NCBI GenBank assembly: GCA_016867375.1
Contig: VGJQ01000004.1
Coordinates: 1-46,722 of the forward strand
DNA: 46,722 nucleotides
Direction: 5' to 3'
DNA from: Candidatus Kaiserbacteria bacterium
GTDB taxonomy: Bacteria; Patescibacteriota; Minisyncoccia; Phycocordibacterales; UBA2100
A program made the translations under genes and the position numbers. Positions 1,977-43,857 of the stretch are shown here, one piece after another; the first letter of the stretch is position 1, and each line of letters starts with the position of its first letter. Below the pieces are notes generated by a model that saw only the letters and a program-made list of their open reading frames with translations, searched no databases and was not told the DNA's origin.

Positions 1977-3557
1977 TTAGGCGCGGTTGATGAAGATGCG
2001 CGGCATCTCATCGGCATTGTGAGCCTGTGCGATCACCATGGTGTCGCTCGTCGCATTGCGGACTTCGCGTGTCGGGAGATCGGTGAGTACCGTGCTCGGA
2101 GTGCTTGAAGTCTTTTTCTCTGCGACTGCTGTTGCCGCGGTCTGCGTCTTTGCGGGCTGTGCGCGGCGGCTGCCTGCAGTCCCGAGAGCCAGTGCGAAGC
2201 CTCCCTTGTAGTAGACCGCGAGGTAGGCTGCGGCGATCGCGAAGGAGAGAAGAGCTGCCCAGTAGAGTCCGTTGCCGACAGGGCCGAAGTCAAAGCCAGT
2301 GTACGGGATCTGCGAGAGCGAGACGTACGGCTTCACAGGGACCTGCGGCGGTACATATACCGGCGGCTGAGGCACATAGACAGGTGGCTGGTATACCGGC
2401 TGAGCCTGATAGACCACTTGGGTCTGGCAAGTGCCGGTGCCCCCTTCGCCGTAGACGGTCATCGTGTAGATCGTCGTGCCACTCACGGGATAGACCGTCG
2501 TCGAACCGTTGGGATTGACCGAGCCGACATTTGGGCTGATCGATGCGGTGTATGCATTGGTCGAGGACCATGAGAGCGTCACCGGGCTATTGCTGTAGCT
2601 GTTGTAGTAGGAGCTTGAGACCGAGATCGTGCAGGTCGGTGCCTGGCGATTTGCCGGGAAGGTGTAGTTGATCAGCTGTTGGATCGGGGTCTGGAAGACC
2701 GGAGCCGGGTTGTTGTTGATGTTGGTGTTGGTGATAGTGATCGGCTGGCCGTTGACCGTGATCGTGTTGGTGTTGTTGCCTGTCGTATTGGTGTTGGTCG
2801 TCGTATTTTTGATCGGACCGACGGAAGTGCTGTTGTTGATCGGACCTGTCGACGCCGATGCAGTCGTGTTTTGAGTCACCGTCTGATTGCTCGGGATGCC
2901 CGGAGTTGACGGTGTGATGGAGATGGAGATCGGGTTTGACTGCGTCTGAGTGTTGCCCTGTGACTGAGACTGAGTCTGAGTCTGGCCCACCGGACCCGAA
3001 GGGGTGCCGACGACCACAGGACCTGCCATAGAATGTCCGAAGCCGGAGGGCCAGCCCGTATTGATCGGCCAGGTCGGGATCGGGCCGCTGTCTACAAAGT
3101 AGCCGCCGCCAGTCGCATATCCACCGTATCCGCCATAGCCTCCAAATCCGCCTATGCCACCGTAGCTTGGGGTGTAGGAGTACATCGGGGAAGCATAGTT
3201 TCCGTAGTTATAACCACCAAAGCCGTAATCCGGGTACGAGGTATCGTAATAGTCGTTGTACGCAGAGGTGTCGTAATAATCGTAGTTGTATGCGGACGTA
3301 TCGTAATAGTCGTTGTACGCAGAGGTGTCGTAATAATCGTAGTTGTATGCGGACGTATCGTAATAGTCGTTGTACGCAGAGGTGTCGTAGTAGTCATAAC
3401 TGCAACATCCGCCGTCGTATGAGCCGCCGTCGTAGCCATACGCGGAGGTATCATAATAATCGTATTGCGCGAACGCGACCGAAGGAATCATGCCGCCAAG
3501 GGCAAAAATCGCTCCGACAGACATGATCGCAATTTTCTGTGAGTAAGTATTGTTCAT
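1977..3557 (-). CDS. Secreted Tyr/Asp-repeat surface protein with Ig-like domain and C-terminal IPYTG sortase-type sorting signal
   Basis: Signal peptide ending VAFA, YDYYDTSAY repeats, T/N-rich linker, PKD/Ig-like segment (VTLSWSSTNA...TTIYTMTVYG), then LSQIPYTG, a TM helix and basic residues. Confidence 0.8.
   Translation of the reverse strand: MNNTYSQKIAIMSVGAIFALGGMIPSVAFAQYDYYDTSAYGYDGGSYDGGCCSYDYYDTSAYNDYYDTSAYNYDYYDTSAYNDYYDTSAYNYDYYDTSAYNDYYDTSYPDYGFGGYNYGNYASPMYSYTPSYGGIGGFGGYGGYGGYATGGGYFVDSGPIPTWPINTGWPSGFGHSMAGPVVVGTPSGPVGQTQTQSQSQGNTQTQSNPISISITPSTPGIPSNQTVTQNTTASASTGPINNSTSVGPIKNTTTNTNTTGNNTNTITVNGQPITITNTNINNNPAPVFQTPIQQLINYTFPANRQAPTCTISVSSSYYNSYSNSPVTLSWSSTNAYTASISPNVGSVNPNGSTTVYPVSGTTIYTMTVYGEGGTGTCQTQVVYQAQPVYQPPVYVPQPPVYVPPQVPVKPYVSLSQIPYTGFDFGPVGNGLYWAALLSFAIAAAYLAVYYKGGFALALGTAGSRRAQPAKTQTAATAVAEKKTSSTPSTVLTDLPTREVRNATSDTMVIAQAHNADEMPRIFINRA
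3241..3389. repeat. 57-bp tandem repeat (about 2.6 copies) encoding YNYDYYDTSAYNDYYDTSA
   Basis: Identical units start at 3241, 3298 and 3355. Confidence 0.9.
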
Positions 3558-3598: not shown

Positions 3599-3626
3599 AT
3601 TATATCAAATCAAATAGCTTTGTCAA
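3599..3626 (-). promoter_or_regulatory. Sigma70 promoter TTGACA-16-TATAAT for the surface protein gene
   Basis: Consensus hexamers on the minus strand upstream of ATG 3557. Confidence 0.7.
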
Positions 3627-3682: not shown

Positions 3683-4141
3683 CTACGGAGCCGCACCCCT
3701 GAGCGCCCCTTCGGGGGTGTGAGAATTGCACCACGCACTTCCCTTGAGACACAAAATCCAGCCCGGAGGGGCCCGGTTGAGGCCAGCCCCGATATCAGCT
3801 TCCGAAAGCACTGCTTTGTTGTCTGTGTTGCAGAGTTGGATCTCCACTGCATTGCGGTATCTAAACGCACCGTAGCAAAATCGGCCTCGTGTGGTGTGGA
3901 CCGGCTTTGGGTCCGTCCATTTGCGGCCACCCGCATATGTAATCGAGGCGACCACACTGTCAGGATGCCACTGGTCGAAGTTGATGGGTATGCATGGCAA
4001 GGGTTTTAGTGCGCGTGGCCTTGGGTGATGATACGCTCTGCATGCTTCATTCTTACAGCTACCGTCTTTTGCCGGAGCTTGCAGAATGGTGCACATGGAA
4101 GCGATCATTGCCGCACTGATGACAAAGATCTTTTGCAGCAT
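3683..4141 (-). CDS. Hypothetical secreted Cys-rich protein
   Basis: MLQKIFVISAAMIASMC signal-like N-terminus and several Cys; no recognised family. Confidence 0.55.
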   Translation of the reverse strand: MLQKIFVISAAMIASMCTILQAPAKDGSCKNEACRAYHHPRPRALKPLPCIPINFDQWHPDSVVASITYAGGRKWTDPKPVHTTRGRFCYGAFRYRNAVEIQLCNTDNKAVLSEADIGAGLNRAPPGWILCLKGSAWCNSHTPEGALRGAAP

Positions 4142-4315: not shown

Positions 4316-4831
4316 TTAGTCATGGTGAGGGCAGGCCCAACGGGCGTGAATGCCGACCTTTTTGACGAGTCTCGCCCGCGAGCCATCAGGACAGGTAAAC
4401 GAGTTATTGTTCCCCACTACCTGATGATTCTTGAGAAAGCCGTCTTTAGGTGCCGGACCGAGCGACTCGTAGGCATCGGCAGCGATCTCTGCCGGAGATT
4501 TCCGATGAGGACCTTTTGCCCGCGGATCGCCTTGGGGATCCTGCTCTTCGCCTTCAAACAAGCCCGTGCCGGAGTCATTCAGCTTAGGCGCCGGAGGCGT
4601 CTGCGGCTGCCCGCCCTTTTCCAGCTTCTCAATGCGCTCGCCGAACGGCTTGAGCGCCTCAGTCAGCTGTTCGAGGGTAAGCGGTGTCGGTTTCGGCTCC
4701 TCCTGCTGGACGACCGGCGCCAGAGGCTTTTCAGCCGTCGGCGACGAGTGCCACCAGCGCCACCCGAGGCCGCCGAGCACGAGAAGTGCCGCAGCACCTA
4801 TTAGAAACTTCGAGTTTTTCCAGAAGTTCAT
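4316..4831 (-). CDS. Hypothetical membrane-anchored protein
   Basis: AAGGAGG SD before MNFWKNSK, then TM helix, Pro-rich linker, short coiled coil and C-terminal CPDG...WACPHHD. Confidence 0.7.
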   Translation of the reverse strand: MNFWKNSKFLIGAAALLVLGGLGWRWWHSSPTAEKPLAPVVQQEEPKPTPLTLEQLTEALKPFGERIEKLEKGGQPQTPPAPKLNDSGTGLFEGEEQDPQGDPRAKGPHRKSPAEIAADAYESLGPAPKDGFLKNHQVVGNNNSFTCPDGSRARLVKKVGIHARWACPHHD

Positions 4832-6996: not shown

Positions 6997-7084
6997 GGCG
7001 CCACACGATCACGAGTGATCGTGTGGCGCATTCTTTTTGCGTATTCAAAAAAGAATTGGCCGTCGCGTGAAAGCGACGGCCAAG
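6997..7084. terminator. Pair of intrinsic terminators between convergent genes
   Basis: GCGCCACACGATCAC/GTGATCGTGTGGCGC followed by a T-run, and TTGGCCGTCGC/GCGACGGCCAA. Confidence 0.7.
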
Positions 7085-7929: not shown

Positions 7930-8134
7930 GCGGCAAAAACCCTTGTCTTGCAAGGTTTTTTGCCGCCTTTGATTGAGGTCTAACACTTGATCACGTGGCG
8001 ATCAGATTTTCACAGATATTCCCTATCTGACGCTATAGCGTCAAATAGGGAATATGAGGAAGGCTCAACCTTCCTCAAGTACACAAGTCAGACTTGTGTA
8101 CTTGCTCCAGATATGTCGAGGTCAGACCTCGACA
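7930..8134. repeat. Cluster of five hairpins (REP-like)
   Basis: Hairpins at 7930-7966, 8016-8055, 8056-8076, 8077-8103 and 8114-8134; the middle three are back-to-back. Confidence 0.85.
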
Positions 8135-15166: not shown

Positions 15167-17044
15167 CTAGCGGATTTCAAAACCCTTTGCAGAGAGCACC
15201 GTTGATACTTTTTGCATGATCAGATTGACCTCTTCGTCGGTGAGGGTCTTTTCAAATGACTGGAAGATCAGTCGGAATGCGAGCGAAGTCTTGTCGGCCT
15301 TGGTGAAGGTGTCGAAGAGCGCAACGCGTTGCAGTAATTCCCCCGATTCTTTTTTGAACACGTCTGAAATGTAGGATCCGACGGATCCTACATTTGCTTC
15401 GTGGTGTAATGTTGACGGAGTCCAGAAGGCGATATCGCGGACGATATAGGGATAACGTGAATACGGTGCATAACGAATCGCGGCTGATGTGGGTAGATTA
15501 ATGTAGGACATCGGATGTCCTACATTTTGCGTGTGCTCGGAGAGAGGTTTTTCGGATGCTTTTCCTTTTTCGGTGATGGTGCCGACCATCTGTATTTCTT
15601 TGGCGTCAGGCCATACGGTCCCTATCTCGAAGAGTTTGATCTCTTTGAGTCCGAGCAAGTCCTTGTTTGGGATATTTTTCTTGAGCGCCTCGGTGAGTCC
15701 GTCGATGAGTGTCGTGCGCAGGTACGGGCGTACGCCGTCTACCTTGTTGGCGACGACGCGTTCGCCCTTTTCCGCAAAGACACTGGTGAAGACCTCGCTG
15801 TAGCCTTGCGCAATCAGGTCCTCGCGGATACGTTCGGCTGCCGCGAAGCTGTGATTGATCTCTGGTAGGGCGGTGCTCGGTGGTAAGGGTGTCGAGGGGA
15901 CTTTGTCGTAGCCTAGGTGGCGGCCAACTTCTTCGATGAGTTCTTCGGGAATCGTGAGATCGAGGCGCTCAAAGGGGGGTGTGACGGTGAAGACGGGAGC
16001 CGGTGATAAGTCTGACTTATCACCATGGTGATAAGTCTGACTTATCACCGGCTCTTGCACGAAAAGTAATCCGAGGCGGGTGAATACGTCGGACACTTCG
16101 TCGGTGGTGATGCTCATGCCAAGGGTTTTGTTGATATGGTCGAGAGTGACAGAGACCGGCTTGATCTCCTGCTTTACGGGATAGGCATCAGTGAAGCCGA
16201 CGATCTCCCCACCAGCGATCTGCTGGATTAGGAGTACCATGTCGCGCATGGCATAGGCTGGCCATTCGGGCGACATCCCCTGCTCGAAGCGTGCCGATGC
16301 ATCAGTGCGGAGCTTCATGTGTTGTGCGGCTTTTCGGACCGCAGCGCCATCGAAGCTCGCGGCTTCGATGATGATGTCTTTGGTGTCTTCGGTGATGGAT
16401 GCAGGCATACCGCCCTTTACTCCCGCGACGCCGATTGCTGTGCTGTCATTGGAGATGACGAGTATCGATGGATTGAGCGTGTATTCTTTCCCGTCGAGTG
16501 CCAGTAATTTTTCCCCTTCTCTTGCAGGGCGGATGTCTATTTGATATTTTTCGTTTTTTGTTTTTAATTTTCCTGCATCAAATGCGTGGAGGGGTGCTCC
16601 GATATTGAACATGACGAAGTTGGTCGCGTCGACGACGTTGTTGATCGACTTCTGTCCCATCTTTTCCAGGTATGAGACGAGCCACTGCGGCGAGGGTGCT
16701 ACCTTGACATCGCGGATGTATCCGGCGATGTAGCGATGGCAGCGCGGGTCGTCGATTGATACCGAGACCGCGTCTGTCTGCGGTGATAAGTTTAACTTAT
16801 CACCGAGTGGGTGATTTTTGAGGGGGATGTTCAAGATCGCCGATATCTCTTTGGCAATGCCACGATATGAGAGGCAATCGTGCCCCCTATTGGCGGTGAC
16901 CTTTACATCGAGGATATGATCATCGCCATGCTGCTCGATCCCGTCGATCTCAAAGACGTGGAAAGTGAGCGCATCGGCGAGGGTGTCCGCATCGGGAAGC
17001 GGAGTATCAAAGAAAGCCTGGAGCCATGCGCGTGAGATTTTCAT
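15167..17044 (-). CDS. pheT: Phenylalanine--tRNA ligase beta subunit (short, no OB/B2 domain)
   Basis: TANRGHDCLSYRGIAKE, INNVVDATN, PLHAFD, LRTDASARFE, RLDLTIPEELIEEVGRHLGY, C-terminal FDX-ACB domain. Confidence 0.95.
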   Translation of the reverse strand: MKISRAWLQAFFDTPLPDADTLADALTFHVFEIDGIEQHGDDHILDVKVTANRGHDCLSYRGIAKEISAILNIPLKNHPLGDKLNLSPQTDAVSVSIDDPRCHRYIAGYIRDVKVAPSPQWLVSYLEKMGQKSINNVVDATNFVMFNIGAPLHAFDAGKLKTKNEKYQIDIRPAREGEKLLALDGKEYTLNPSILVISNDSTAIGVAGVKGGMPASITEDTKDIIIEAASFDGAAVRKAAQHMKLRTDASARFEQGMSPEWPAYAMRDMVLLIQQIAGGEIVGFTDAYPVKQEIKPVSVTLDHINKTLGMSITTDEVSDVFTRLGLLFVQEPVISQTYHHGDKSDLSPAPVFTVTPPFERLDLTIPEELIEEVGRHLGYDKVPSTPLPPSTALPEINHSFAAAERIREDLIAQGYSEVFTSVFAEKGERVVANKVDGVRPYLRTTLIDGLTEALKKNIPNKDLLGLKEIKLFEIGTVWPDAKEIQMVGTITEKGKASEKPLSEHTQNVGHPMSYINLPTSAAIRYAPYSRYPYIVRDIAFWTPSTLHHEANVGSVGSYISDVFKKESGELLQRVALFDTFTKADKTSLAFRLIFQSFEKTLTDEEVNLIMQKVSTVLSAKGFEIR

Positions 17045-17451
17045 AGGAAGAAATTTTTAAATAGGGTGTCTAGATCTTCTACGGTATTGTATTTTTCAAC
17101 ACGGACGTTGCGGTTACCTGAAAGCATGGCCGAAAGCCTTCTCCCCTCCTGCTCGCGATATAAACAGATTATTTTTTTTCCATGGCTTTCAGCATGCCCG
17201 ATTTCGTAACCTACTCCGAGGCTAGGAATGGAAACTTCCGCGACAACTACGTCGCATTCTTGAATCCACGCCACATCGCGTGTATAAATGTCCTCGTTTG
17301 TTCGCTGTGTTTCTCCAAGATGACTTAAGTTCGTATCCCCAATATGTTCTGTGAGGACAGTACCATGCTTCCCCAAAAGCCTGATAGCGGTTAAATACAG
17401 ATCTTGATCGTCTCTACCTCCCCTAATTGCTCCCGCGAAGTAAATTTTCAT
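17041..17451 (-). CDS. Nucleoside 2-deoxyribosyltransferase / DNPH1 (Rcl)-like N-glycosidase
   Basis: KIYFAGAIRGGR, LTEH, IYTRD, AEVSIPSLGVGYEIG, LSAMLSGN. Confidence 0.9.
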   Translation of the reverse strand: MKIYFAGAIRGGRDDQDLYLTAIRLLGKHGTVLTEHIGDTNLSHLGETQRTNEDIYTRDVAWIQECDVVVAEVSIPSLGVGYEIGHAESHGKKIICLYREQEGRRLSAMLSGNRNVRVEKYNTVEDLDTLFKNFFL

Positions 17452-17454
17452 AAA

Positions 17455-18243
17455 TTAGAATTGGTTAACGAACCTGAGGTCGGCGCTGTGCATGTGGCGG
17501 ATGTCGTCGATGCCCCAACGCAGGAGTGCGAGGCGGTCGAGGCCCATGCCGAATGCGAAGCCGGAATAGGTGTGTGGGTCGACACCGGCGTTCTTGAGGA
17601 CATTGGGGTGGACGAGCCCCGCACCCATCATCTCGATCCAGCGATTACGCAGCTTTTCGGGGACATGTTCCCCAACCAAGCGCATATCGACTTCGACGGA
17701 AGGCTCAGTAAACGGAAAGAAGCTCGGACGGAAACGTATCTCGACGGATGCATCACGGAAGATGCCGGCAAAGAACGCTTCGAGTGTACCTTTGAGATGT
17801 GCGAGCGAAATCCCCTCCCCTACGACGAGGCCCTCGATCTGGAAGAACTCCGCTTCATGTGTCATGTCAGTCGCTTCGTTGCGGAAGACTTTGCCGGGGA
17901 CAATGATGCGATATGGCGGCTGTATACCCTTTTTGATCTGCTCTTCCATGTAGCGGATTTGCACAGGGCTGGTATGCGTGCGCAAGACCTCTGTCACAGC
18001 AAGGTCCGACCTTGCTGAACTCAGCAAGGTCGGACCTTGCTGTGATGCAATGTGCGGCTTGATGAAAAAGGTGTCTTGCATGTCGCGTGCGGGGTGATCT
18101 TGCGGCACGTTGAGTGCGTCGAAATTGTGCCACTCGTCTTCAAGTAAGGGACCTTCGGCAAAGGTGAATCCCATATCGAAAAAGATCCGGTTGGCTTCGC
18201 GGATCAGCGATGAAATAGGATGAATGTGTCCCCTCTCTGGCAT
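17455..18243 (-). CDS. pheS: Phenylalanine--tRNA ligase alpha subunit (lacks N-terminal coiled coil)
   Basis: GHIHP, NFDALN, HPARDMQDTF, LRTHTS, FPFTEPS, GFAFGMGLDRL. Confidence 0.97.
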   Translation of the reverse strand: MPERGHIHPISSLIREANRIFFDMGFTFAEGPLLEDEWHNFDALNVPQDHPARDMQDTFFIKPHIASQQGPTLLSSARSDLAVTEVLRTHTSPVQIRYMEEQIKKGIQPPYRIIVPGKVFRNEATDMTHEAEFFQIEGLVVGEGISLAHLKGTLEAFFAGIFRDASVEIRFRPSFFPFTEPSVEVDMRLVGEHVPEKLRNRWIEMMGAGLVHPNVLKNAGVDPHTYSGFAFGMGLDRLALLRWGIDDIRHMHSADLRFVNQF

Positions 18244-18299
18244 AAAAGCAGTATAACGTAGCGAGTCATGGATTGAAAACGGATGGAGCGAGTTGGTAA

Positions 18300-18388
18300 G
18301 GGCTCGTCCACAAATCACATACTCGTTATTTGTGGACTACACTTATGGGTCCGTTCATTTGGTGTTGAACTTATTTATGAACGGGACC
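18300..18388 (+). mobile_element. MITE-like double-hairpin element, copy 1
   Basis: GGGCTCGTCCACA...TATGAACGGGACC flanked by TAA/TAA. Confidence 0.8.
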
Positions 18389-28596: not shown

Positions 28597-30054
<1,458 letters not shown>

Positions 30055-30463: not shown

Positions 30464-31420
30464 CTACCTCATCGCCTCCATGCCCGATGTGATCTCGGAT
30501 ACTTCGCGGGTGATGGCTGCTTGGCGGGCTTTGTTGAAATGGCGGGTGTAGGATTTGACCATGTCTTTGGCCTTGTCGGTCGCGCTCTTCATGGCGACGC
30601 GGCGTGCGCTGTGTTCGGACGCTTTTGATTCGATGAATGCGTGGAAGACCATGATGTTGATGAGGCGCGGAAGGAGCTCTGCGAGGACCTGATCGACGGA
30701 GGGTTCGACGAGATAGATCGCTAGGGGTGGGACGGGTGCCTCGCTGCGGGGAGCGTAGCGTCCGCGCGCGGGGCGGATGCCGGCGACCGTCTCGCGGACT
30801 GCTTCCGGCGTGACGGGTATGACCTGGTGCGCGAGCGCCTCTTGCTCAAATGTCGAGATAAAATTCGTGTATATGACAAGGCATGTGTCGATCTCCCCGA
30901 CTGCATGCCAAGAGAGTAGTTCATCTGTGATGGTGCGCAGGTCGGATTCGGAGAGATCATCGCTGACGTTTTCCCTGCGGATGCGGACATCGTAGCCGCG
31001 ATTGGCGAAGTGTTCGGCGCCACGGCGGCCGATCGCGATCATGATCGTCTGCTCGGGTCCTAGGTTGCGTGCGGCGATTTCGTGTTCGGCGCGGCGGATG
31101 ACGGAGCTGTTGAGCGAACCGGCAAGCCCTTTGTCGCTCGTCACTATGATAAGGCAGGTGCGAAATTTGGGTTTCGTAAACCCAAAATTTGGGTTTACGA
31201 AACCCAAATTTCGCACCATGAGGGGGTGATGCGAAGTGTCCAGGGATCTGGAGAGGTGCTCAAGGACGGAGAGAGCGGCGGCGGCATAGGCGCGGCCGGC
31301 GAGCGCGCGCTCTTGGGTCTTGCGCATCTTGACCGCGGAGACGGCTTCCATGGCGTGGGTCACCGTCCCCGTCTTGCGGTACGACTGGATTTTGATTTTT
31401 ATGTTTTTGAGGCTGGCCAT
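30464..31420 (-). CDS. atpG: ATP synthase gamma subunit
   Basis: VTHAMEAVSAVK, TSDKGLAGSLN, SEHSARRVAMKSATD, RQAAITREVSEI. Confidence 0.97.
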   Translation of the reverse strand: MASLKNIKIKIQSYRKTGTVTHAMEAVSAVKMRKTQERALAGRAYAAAALSVLEHLSRSLDTSHHPLMVRNLGFVNPNFGFTKPKFRTCLIIVTSDKGLAGSLNSSVIRRAEHEIAARNLGPEQTIMIAIGRRGAEHFANRGYDVRIRRENVSDDLSESDLRTITDELLSWHAVGEIDTCLVIYTNFISTFEQEALAHQVIPVTPEAVRETVAGIRPARGRYAPRSEAPVPPLAIYLVEPSVDQVLAELLPRLINIMVFHAFIESKASEHSARRVAMKSATDKAKDMVKSYTRHFNKARQAAITREVSEITSGMEAMR

Positions 31421-37015: not shown

Positions 37016-37146
37016 GACGCGTCGGAATATACGCGTATTGACATACTTACCCCCCTCTCTCGTATGAGGGGGAGTTTTTTATGCGCCAAAAATCCCCGTT
37101 TACGGGGATTTTTGGCGCACCACATCATGTGTGTATCGGGACGAGG

Positions 37147-37539
37147 CTACTTCCGCATCGTGACATTGATCGTGTAGTCGGATGCTTCGAAGAATGCCTT
37201 GGCAAACTCTGCCGTCTGCACGGGATCGTAGAATTTGCACGAGAAGACGTCGAGATAGGTCGTGTTGGTGGCATTGGCAAAGTGTGCCGAGATGAGACTC
37301 GTCTCGATAAGCTGCGTCATCGAGAAGCCAGCTACGCGCTCGTCTTCGCCGAAGTCGACCACGACGGTGTCGCCGAATCGCTTCATACTAATACGGTCGC
37401 ACAAGGCGACCACGAATTCCTTGATTTTTTCTGCGTCGCGGATAGTCTCCGCTTTGCAGCCGTGCAGGTCGATGGCCGAAGCCAATCCCCATGCATCAGA
37501 ATGTTTGTAATCTGCCTCAATGCTTTGTATGTCGATCAT
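37147..37539 (-). CDS. speD: Pyruvoyl-dependent S-adenosylmethionine decarboxylase-family proenzyme
   Basis: IDLHGC, GFSMTQLIETSLISAHF, YLDVFSCK. Confidence 0.8.
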   Translation of the reverse strand: MIDIQSIEADYKHSDAWGLASAIDLHGCKAETIRDAEKIKEFVVALCDRISMKRFGDTVVVDFGEDERVAGFSMTQLIETSLISAHFANATNTTYLDVFSCKFYDPVQTAEFAKAFFEASDYTINVTMRK

Positions 37540-37647
37540 GAGCCATAAAATTAGTTGCTATTGATATACTGCAAATATACAACATTTGAAGGAAGTCAAA
37601 CAGGTTATCCACATGTTTGGTGCTGGAGAGATACAAGGCGCGGCGGC

Positions 37648-42516: not shown

Positions 42517-42552
42517 GTCGTGTGAATAATGTAGGACATCGGATGTCCTACA

Positions 42553-43857
42553 TTAGCGGTCGAGCCATTCGGGGTCTTGGCGGACGAGGAGCTCTGAAGC
42601 GCGGTCCGGCTCGGCCATGATCTCAAGGACGGTCTTTTCCATACGTATCCCTTGTGAGCCTTTAATGAGGACTATATCGCCTTCTTGTATTTCTGGTTCG
42701 AGCTCTTTGCCAGCGCGGACGGATTCGTTTTGCTCGTATTCACGGATATGGGTATCGGGCATACCGGCATCAAGCGCCGCCTCTCCTATCGCGCGTGCGC
42801 GGAAGCCGACGGTGAGAAGCATATCTGCGCAGGCGGCGGCACGTACACCTACGGTGCGGTGCGCATCGGCGCTGTATTTGCCCAGCTCAAGCATGTCGCC
42901 CATGATCGCGATCTTTCGCCCCTTGGTCTGTATCGAGGTGAGTGTGTCGAGTGCGGCGAGGGCGGCTGCGGGCGAGGAATTGTAGGTGTCGTCGATGATG
43001 GTGGAGCCGCGAATGCCGCGGAGGATGCGGAGTCTGCCTGGCGAAGGCTCCCAGTATGAGAGGTCTCCGGCTGCTGAGACGGCGTCGATACCTGCTGCTC
43101 CTGCTGTAGTGAGTGCAGCGAGCGCGGCATACACGCGCGGGCGACCCAAGGCGCCGGTGAGCGAGACAGGCACCGATACTTCCGGTGAGGGGGTCTTGGT
43201 GTGTACTTCGATGCGGAATCGGATTCCGATTGGCGCGCCATTCTCATACAAAATCTCTTCATGCGAGGCGCTGTATTCATTCTCTGGCGAGAGGCCGTAG
43301 GTCACACACAGGCCCGGGTATTTGGAGCGGAGATCACGAATGCGCGGGTCGTCGCCGTTGACGATAAATGTGCCGCCGGGCTTGAGGTGCTCGATGAGCG
43401 CACTCTTCTCGCGCAACAGAGCTTCAGGAGAATCGAAATACTCTACATGGGCGGGTATCTCAGGGATGCCTGTAATCAAAGCTATGTCGGGGCGCAGCCA
43501 CGATGCGATCGAGCGGATGTCCCCTGGCCGGTCGGCGCCTACTTCGAGCACGAGCCAATCGGGATAGCGTGCGGGGCGGATGACGACAAGGAGTCCGCGG
43601 ATGATATTCCACAGCCATTTCACGGGATTGTGCCAGGCATTGTCCAGGCCGAGGATGGTGAGCGGGACGCCGATCTCGCTGTTGAAGCTTTTTTCACTCT
43701 TGCGTACATGGAGATGATCCGAGAGTGCGGCGAAAATCGCGTCTTTGGTGGATGTCTTGCCGACCGAACCGGTGACGGCGATGATGCGTGGCTGGTGACG
43801 CTTCAAGACCGCACGCGCTTCCCAGGTAAGTATATGTACGATGATTTTTTTGAGCAT
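42553..43857 (-). CDS. murF: UDP-N-acetylmuramoyl-tripeptide--D-Ala-D-Ala ligase
   Basis: AVTGSVGKTSTK, FNSEIGVPLT, IDDTYNSSP, GDMLELG, IKGSQGIRME. Confidence 0.95.
   Translation of the reverse strand: MLKKIIVHILTWEARAVLKRHQPRIIAVTGSVGKTSTKDAIFAALSDHLHVRKSEKSFNSEIGVPLTILGLDNAWHNPVKWLWNIIRGLLVVIRPARYPDWLVLEVGADRPGDIRSIASWLRPDIALITGIPEIPAHVEYFDSPEALLREKSALIEHLKPGGTFIVNGDDPRIRDLRSKYPGLCVTYGLSPENEYSASHEEILYENGAPIGIRFRIEVHTKTPSPEVSVPVSLTGALGRPRVYAALAALTTAGAAGIDAVSAAGDLSYWEPSPGRLRILRGIRGSTIIDDTYNSSPAAALAALDTLTSIQTKGRKIAIMGDMLELGKYSADAHRTVGVRAAACADMLLTVGFRARAIGEAALDAGMPDTHIREYEQNESVRAGKELEPEIQEGDIVLIKGSQGIRMEKTVLEIMAEPDRASELLVRQDPEWLDR

Follow-up and report, generated by a model that had tools for sequence, protein, structure and literature searches.

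Palindromic inserts in pheT of a Candidatus Kaiserbacteria genome as probable copies of REP-like repeats from a multi-family REP/RAYT system

Inside pheT, the gene for the phenylalanyl-tRNA synthetase beta chain, a Candidatus Kaiserbacteria bacterium (GCA_016867375.1) carries five palindromic units at four sites. These hairpins are very probably copies of repeats resembling repetitive extragenic palindromes (REPs) and belong to a multi-family system of such repeats and REP-associated tyrosine transposases (RAYTs). The window, that is, the whole stretch of DNA analysed, is contig VGJQ01000004.1 (46,722 nucleotides; contig C4 below) of a 1,008,099-base assembly (genome G000; 50 contigs, 53% G+C, 96% complete). 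The relatives compared with it are metagenome-assembled genomes labeled Kaiserbacteria, Adlerbacteria or Paceibacterota. REP/RAYT systems and intragenic REPs are themselves already known; here, the repeats have an unusually high intragenic share, in a minimal genome.

The pheT gene (15167-17044, minus strand) was identified from its open reading frame (ORF) and translation (625 aa) and from the Pfam domains B3_4 (residues 102-278), B5 (297-379), tRNA_synthFbeta (388-481) and FDX-ACB (529-625). Inverted-repeat and translation checks confirmed the positions and peptides given for its palindromes in the original prediction, which had been made from the sequence alone. At 15367-15395 lies a 29-nt perfect palindrome (14-nt arms, 1-nt loop) with the core ATGTAGGATCCG-A-CGGATCCTACAT, encoding NVGSVGSYI (residues 551-559) in the FDX-ACB domain. 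In the linker before this domain, the ATGTAGGACATC-S-GATGTCCTACAT family is represented by a perfect palindrome of 27 nt (15500-15526; 13-nt arms, 1-nt loop), which encodes NVGHPMSYI (residues 507-515). A REP doublet, composed of two copies of the 23-nt unit GGTGATAAGTC-T-GACTTATCACC (16002-16024 and 16027-16049), lies inside a 58-nt near-perfect palindrome (15997-16054) that encodes PVISQTYHHGDKSDLSP (residues 332-348) in a loop of the B5 domain; this doublet is atypical in having T at both unit centres. The fourth site, 16781-16805, is a 25-nt perfect palindrome, CGGTGATAAGTT-T-AACTTATCACCG (12-nt arms, 1-nt loop), encoding GDKLNLSP (residues 81-88). Only two families had been predicted for these sites; three sequence types is the fairer description, because the resemblance of the 15367 element to the 15500 family is limited to the outer 8 nt of each arm, and its inner stem is different. 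The element's single similar copy in the genome, on C37, differs by 3 mismatches. Upstream, pheS (17455-18318, minus strand) contains a 52-nt perfect palindrome at 17994-18045, a doublet of CAGCAAGGTC-S-GACCTTGCTG units. Folded as RNA, the inserts reach -15 to -50 kcal/mol (z-scores -6 to -11), the pheT and pheS doublets yielding -45.8 and -49.6 kcal/mol, respectively.

PheT was aligned with 29 orthologs (19 from related genomes and 10 further ones, partly closer). Judged from these alignments, 15997-16054 and 15367-15395 are clear insertions: the former adds 17 residues relative to nine of the ten further orthologs and 15 relative to the tenth (13 to 17 in the 19-ortholog alignment), and the latter adds 8 residues relative to all ten (7-8 in the 19-ortholog alignment). 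The 67-position B5 profile is, correspondingly, stretched across 83 PheT residues. At the 15500 site, the linker between the KPL and LP anchors comprises 15 residues here, compared with 10 in L060, the closest ortholog (72% identity), and 20 in L029, so that the palindrome amounts to about 5 additional residues relative to L060 in a linker whose length varies among orthologs. L029, from genome G077, has the identical 25-nt core in the same frame at the same position, with a PheT that is 65% identical to the one studied here. These two relatives were the nearest in the scans of genomes and metagenome contigs, and at 65% and 72% protein identity they are too distant for exact insertion boundaries to be drawn at the DNA level. 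Thus, of the at least four insertions originally predicted, the doublet and the 15367 element stand, the 15500 element lies in a length-variable linker, and 16781-16805 shows no indel. In pheS, the doublet corresponds to an 18-residue insertion relative to all 16 aligned orthologs. The net insert sizes in the alignments (+24, +51 and +54 nt) are multiples of three, as an intact ORF requires; the units themselves measure 23-25 nt, so the proposed test on the length modulo three of coding copies fails, and only net inserts behave in this way. Perfect palindromes with a stem of at least 9 nt are present in 19 of 49 distinct pheT orthologs of other species, mostly from other families but of the same build; some of these fall in conserved motifs and may be due to chance, and the pheT studied here has the most.

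Structure mapping, also proposed originally, places all four pheT sites in coil or linker regions of an AlphaFold2 model (33-sequence alignment, mean pLDDT 83.9). The segment 332-350 is a loop connecting two strands, and its pLDDT falls below 50 at 336-345; a low-confidence linker holds residues 507-515 (block-mean pLDDT 64 and 54); residues 550-552, immediately before a helix, have pLDDT below 50; and residues 81-88 are coil before B3_4 (block-mean pLDDT 85).

The repeat families represented in pheT and pheS recur elsewhere in the genome, and two of them lead to RAYT-like genes. The ATGTAGGACATC-S-GATGTCCTACAT family has seven copies: one in pheT, two that bracket the RAYT-like gene C31:3945-4625 (at 3926-3950 and 4631-4655), and four at or overlapping stop codons. 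The stop codon of the RAYT-like gene on C31 is itself the TAG of the flanking repeat. The ATGTAG of the repeat supplies the stop codon of two genes; in two others, one of them the Mur ligase gene in the window (42556-43857, minus strand; Pfam Mur_ligase_M and Mur_ligase_C), the repeat overlaps the stop codon. At the Mur ligase gene, a 29-nt palindrome at 42527-42555 overlaps the stop codon and contains, at 42528-42554, the exact copy of the 15500 27-mer that had been noticed at the 3' end of this gene. The family was found in 6 of the 101 genomes of the genus, and its copies also bracket RAYT-like genes in G076 (C41:23257-23484) and G095 (C39:19952-20266). The pheS family brackets another RAYT-like gene, C5:42482-43237. 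The GGTGATAAGT-Y-W-R-ACTTATCACC family, which was found in 2 of the 101 genomes, has 10 copies at six loci, nine of them inside ORFs by crude gene calls: three units are in pheT, and there is one doublet each in an mnmA-like and a tsaD-like gene. The tsaD-like gene (L109; C37:2834-4192, minus strand; 452 aa), in which the Pfam profile matches in three stretches, holds palindromes of four families (2977-3001, 3303-3350, 3603-3625 and 3885-3907).

A search of the genome with the Pfam profile PF01797 (Y1_Tnp) yielded 13 matches, 12 of these above the curated cut-off. All 13 genes are bracketed by a palindrome family of their own, located within tens of bases of the gene or overlapping its start or stop. 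The flanking palindromes are perfect on both sides in 10 cases, on C27 and C31 one of the two flanking copies carries a single mismatch, and the stems on C22 are only 7 nt long. The RAYT-like open frames span 226-276 aa, and in an alignment of the 13 proteins, H113 and H115 (HUH) and Y173 are invariant. The NCBIfam profile NF047646, 'REP-associated tyrosine transposase', was matched by all 13 at E <= 0.01, and a profile of the 13 proteins reached a single solved structure, E. coli TnpA_REP (4ER8, E = 0.024). A 14th RAYT-like region, C1:38401-38865, 33% identical to the C23 protein (E = 1e-22), was picked up by tblastn alone and missed when Pfam was searched at E <= 0.001; a few hundred bases from it there are palindromes of two families. 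The number of RAYT-like genes among 30 relatives ranges from 0 to 10, compared to 13 here. Five of the RAYT-like genes in this genome (on C5, C10, C6, C11 and C25; L021, L022, L024, L028 and L090) carry their own palindrome in frame, encoding peptides such as HKSDLCL (C10) and QQGRTLL (C5), and several have a repeat over the start or stop.

The whole genome contains 364 perfect palindromes (stem of at least 10 nt, loop of at most 4 nt), 130 of which have a 1-nt loop. Five Markov-1 simulated genomes of equal size contained 6, 6, 4, 9 and 2 palindromes (1, 0, 2, 1 and 0 with a 1-nt loop), and chance does not account for the palindromes. The 130 one-nucleotide-loop palindromes fall into families of about 21-25 nt with different outer arms and common centres, namely GTCWGAC (53), GCGWCGC (19), GTCSGAC (13), GCCWGGC (9) and ATCSGAT (8). 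Single units measure 21-29 nt. Adjacent units are usually inverted and have complementary centre bases, so that doublets are long palindromes of 50-61 nt. In some families, the palindrome runs on into complementary flanks specific to the locus, which measure up to 4 nt; no conserved asymmetric flank or target motif was seen in the aligned flanks of 8 families.

Genes were called crudely, as longest ORFs of at least 80 aa, resulting in 1047 ORFs that cover 87% of the genome. The count of coding versus intergenic copies that had been suggested as a check placed 62 of the 130 palindromes entirely within ORFs, 19 at the edge of an ORF and the remaining 49 between ORFs, and for 51 of the 62 intragenic palindromes the host ORF is at least 200 aa long. 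Intergenic DNA is enriched, with 38% of the copies in 13% of the genome, and still about half of the copies are intragenic. One and the same unit is read in different frames by different genes (GDKSDLSP and VISQTYH for one unit, QQGPTLL and ARSDLA for another), and the units are free of stop codons in two of the three frames.

The location of each of the 13 RAYT-like genes between copies of its own palindrome family corresponds to the REPtron arrangement. TnpA Y1 enzymes of IS200/IS605 act on hairpin-shaped DNA ends as single strands. By analogy with these enzymes and with E. coli TnpA_REP, the RAYT-like enzyme would recognize the folded single-stranded hairpin, cut and rejoin it, and thereby spread copies of the repeat. 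In a genome that is about 87% coding, many copies would be expected to land in genes, and those that survive would be the ones that keep the frame and sit in tolerant loops or linkers; the copies in pheT, pheS, atpG, atpD, tsaD and mnmA would be cases of this kind. Because the units of 23-25 nt are not multiples of three, a single insertion would shift the frame, and the in-frame state would reflect selection combined with small flank adjustments or with pairing of units. The residues beside the pheS insert are altered (DEPGMV in orthologs versus PHIA...VTEV here), which is consistent with flank adjustment. The doublets consist of two inverted units, in a REPIN-like arrangement, forming hairpins of 50-60 nt.

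Several results weigh against this assignment to a REP/RAYT system. No RAYT-like gene was found in the genome searches beside any copy of the GGTGATAAGT family, to which three of the five pheT units belong. The cognate gene of this orphan family may be unassembled, given that assembly completeness is 96% and that several of the RAYT-like genes are close to the end of a contig, or a related enzyme may serve the family. The tetranucleotide GT[AG]G lies within the arms both of TGTGGAGGTC and of the 15500 family (ATGTAGG...) but is absent from GGTGATAAGT and most other families; as the foot that characterizes classical REPs, it is carried by the 15500 family only. REP types lacking GT[AG]G are reported in a section of Quentin 2018 (PMC6006769). 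Copy numbers of 2-37 per family, obtained by fuzzy matching with overlapping family definitions, are far below the hundreds of copies of classical REPs. The centre base shows no bias with respect to the sense strand of the host gene (15 A versus 12 T in singletons), and thus lends no support to strand-specific insertion. The one NF047646 score seen, 43 bits, does not reach the curated cut-off of 80, and the comparison of a single RAYT-like sequence with solved structures gave nothing meaningful and did not reach 4ER8. A search for sequencing runs gave nine from lake water, none recorded as RNA. In contigs of four lake-water runs (X1-X4) compared over 15167-18318, only filled alleles were found, with no contig skipping a palindrome and no presence/absence polymorphism. 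We infer mobility from the comparison between species; it was not observed. Finally, 16781-16805 shows no indel relative to any of the 29 orthologs, which is the outcome named in the original prediction as speaking against an insertion. This site may hold an old REP copy, or native sequence here may have been overwritten through conversion from a REP.

The 16781 site also provides the best case for an origin of the palindromes in place, either by quasi-palindrome correction, with template switching within the strand, or by gene conversion in which a similar REP copy overwrites native sequence, and not by transposition. In a codon-level comparison, its peptide LGDKLNLSP resembles the native LADKPNLSP of L046, and it matches both this peptide and LGKKPELVP of L041 at most positions. 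The locus-specific complementary flanks that lengthen some palindromes, and the doublets being larger palindromes themselves, point in the same direction. We nevertheless consider such an origin unlikely for the repeats in general: identical cores of 21-25 nt are present at 6-13 unlinked loci and in other genomes, which independent events cannot yield, the other pheT sites and pheS contain clear length insertions, and the families bracket RAYT-like genes. About equally improbable, in our assessment, is that the hairpins are kept for host use, such as translation pausing, transcript stabilization or protein binding, with the RAYT link explaining their origin only. The RNA hairpins are very stable (-15 to -50 kcal/mol), copies of the 15500 family overlap the stop codons of at least four genes, and the 25-nt core at 15500 is identical in G000 and in a species with a 65%-identical PheT. 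However, turnover from an active master copy accounts equally well for the identity of copies across species, the host genes and the positions within them are unrelated, both orientations are found, and most orthologs lack any palindrome at the pheT sites.

Scarcely any probability attaches to the repeats being either selected peptide motifs or assembly artefacts. The units do encode stop-free peptides in two of three frames; however, the original prediction that these are dispersed DNA elements rather than protein motifs is borne out by the presence of the same DNA between genes, across stop codons and in unrelated genes. Because one unit is read in different frames across genes, selection for a peptide motif is ruled out. 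Against an assembly artefact, contigs of three further samples (X2-X4) show the same sequence, without differences at sites 15367, 15500 and 16781. Indels at 18015-18021 came from short contigs that cover the doublet alone and presumably represent other genomic copies of that repeat. One contig of run X1 connects the final base of the 15367 palindrome (15395) to the initial base of the one at 16781, skipping 1385 bases; with 24 letters on the shorter side, this joint is not interpretable and may stem from another repeat-rich locus.

The REP/RAYT interpretation can be set against the known REP/RAYT systems and REPINs, which are established (Nunvar 2010, PMC2817692; Bertels & Rainey 2011, PMC3116915). 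The arrangement resembles the REPtrons of E. coli and Pseudomonas in its palindromic families, one Y1/HUH gene per bracketing family, inverted doublets, and the HUH motif with a Tyr. Unlike in classical REPs, a single central base separates perfect arms here, the GT[AG]G foot is missing from most families, families are small (2-37 copies by fuzzy matching), and 13-14 REPtrons are present in 1 Mb. Nor are the repeats confined to extragenic DNA, about half of the copies being intragenic, although intragenic REPs are documented. According to parts of Di Nocera, De Gregorio & Rocco 2013 (PMC3733652), REPs and their dimers occur in frame in genes that encode known proteins, including tRNA synthetases; the dimers encode 20-30 residues, some copies lie at ORF ends, and some species have several REPtrons per genome. 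The GTAG/CGTC REPs described in those parts are mostly intergenic and only exceptionally intragenic, in contrast to 62 of 130 here, in a bacterium of the candidate phyla radiation. Quentin et al. 2018 (PMC6006769) note, in the passage on TnpA_REP subclass 2.4, that this subclass has REP insertions within tnpA_REP genes, and at least 5 of the 13 RAYT-like genes here resemble it in having their own REP in frame. Compared with what that passage gives for subclass 2.4, however, the HUH-to-Tyr spacing is 58 residues (in the first sequence) versus a median of 88, and the REP insertions in the present genes are located outside the stretch from HUH to Tyr. Literature searches gave no paper that links RAYTs or REPINs with taxa of the candidate phyla radiation, which is no proof of absence.

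Two other kinds of elements offer partial parallels. As in IS200/IS605, the enzymes belong to the PF01797 family and the DNA is hairpin-shaped, but here the transposase gene does not travel with the repeats, and the repeats far outnumber the genes. Rickettsia palindromic elements (RPEs), found in Rickettsia, are about 100-150 bp long and are not known to have a transposase; they were reportedly described by Ogata et al. in 2000. Like the repeats studied here, they are palindromic selfish DNA that sits in frame within genes of a small genome, the genes remaining functional; unlike them, our elements are 21-29 nt long (50-61 nt as doublets) and are tied to RAYT-like genes.

If the pheT palindromes are indeed part of a REP/RAYT system, several selfish inserts that form hairpins are tolerated by a housekeeping enzyme in a minimal genome and are tied to 13-14 transposase-like genes. 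For annotation, such repeats account for unusual insertions and C-termini seen in many proteins of these bacteria. With many enzyme/repeat pairs in one genome, this is also a compact natural system for studying how RAYT-type enzymes move REPs. We further suggest, quite tentatively and with the odds rather against it, that in gene-dense ultra-small bacteria the REP/RAYT niche may have moved from intergenic DNA to the loops of essential genes, with palindromes kept stop-free in two frames on both strands and renewed by RAYT action or conversion, even overwriting native sequence of equal length as at 16781-16805. Ongoing renewal or conversion would explain the identical 25-nt core at the same pheT linker in species whose PheT proteins are 65% identical. 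Equal-length overwriting at 16781-16805, if true, would amount to a conversion-like spread that has not been described for REPs.

The window contains further palindromes. Two intergenic REP-like palindromes of other families are located at 8076-8104 (GTACACAAGTC-A-GACTTGTGTAC) and 8114-8134 (TGTCGAGGTC-A-GACCTCGACA). A 61-nt nested perfect palindrome lies in frame in atpG (31157-31217), the product of which has 318 aa compared to a 285-position profile, and its family, TTTGGGTTT-CGT-AAACCCAAA, brackets a RAYT-like gene on C35. In atpD, a 30-nt palindrome at 29950-29979 maps to the N-terminal barrel. Three long perfect palindromes were assigned to none of the 17 repeat families examined: those at 1829-1866 (38 nt) and 6998-7029 (32 nt) are intergenic, and the one at 37082-37119 (38 nt) is at the start of a crude ORF, 37081-37548, without a Pfam match. 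Elsewhere in the genome, a separate family, GTCCACA[CA]ATAACG-NNNN-CGTTAT[GT]TGTGGAC, with 14-nt arms and a 4-nt loop, occurs in nine or more places (for example, C1:41430-41461, C10:21415-21446, C11:24608-24639 and C2:445-476) and is tied to no gene here.

In the window, pheS and pheT are separated by an ORF for a 136-aa nucleoside 2-deoxyribosyltransferase-like protein (17041-17451, minus strand; PF05014, E = 2.7e-17), the end of which shares 4 nt with the start of pheT. There is no room for such a gene in most related loci, where the match to pheS stops only a few bases before pheT.

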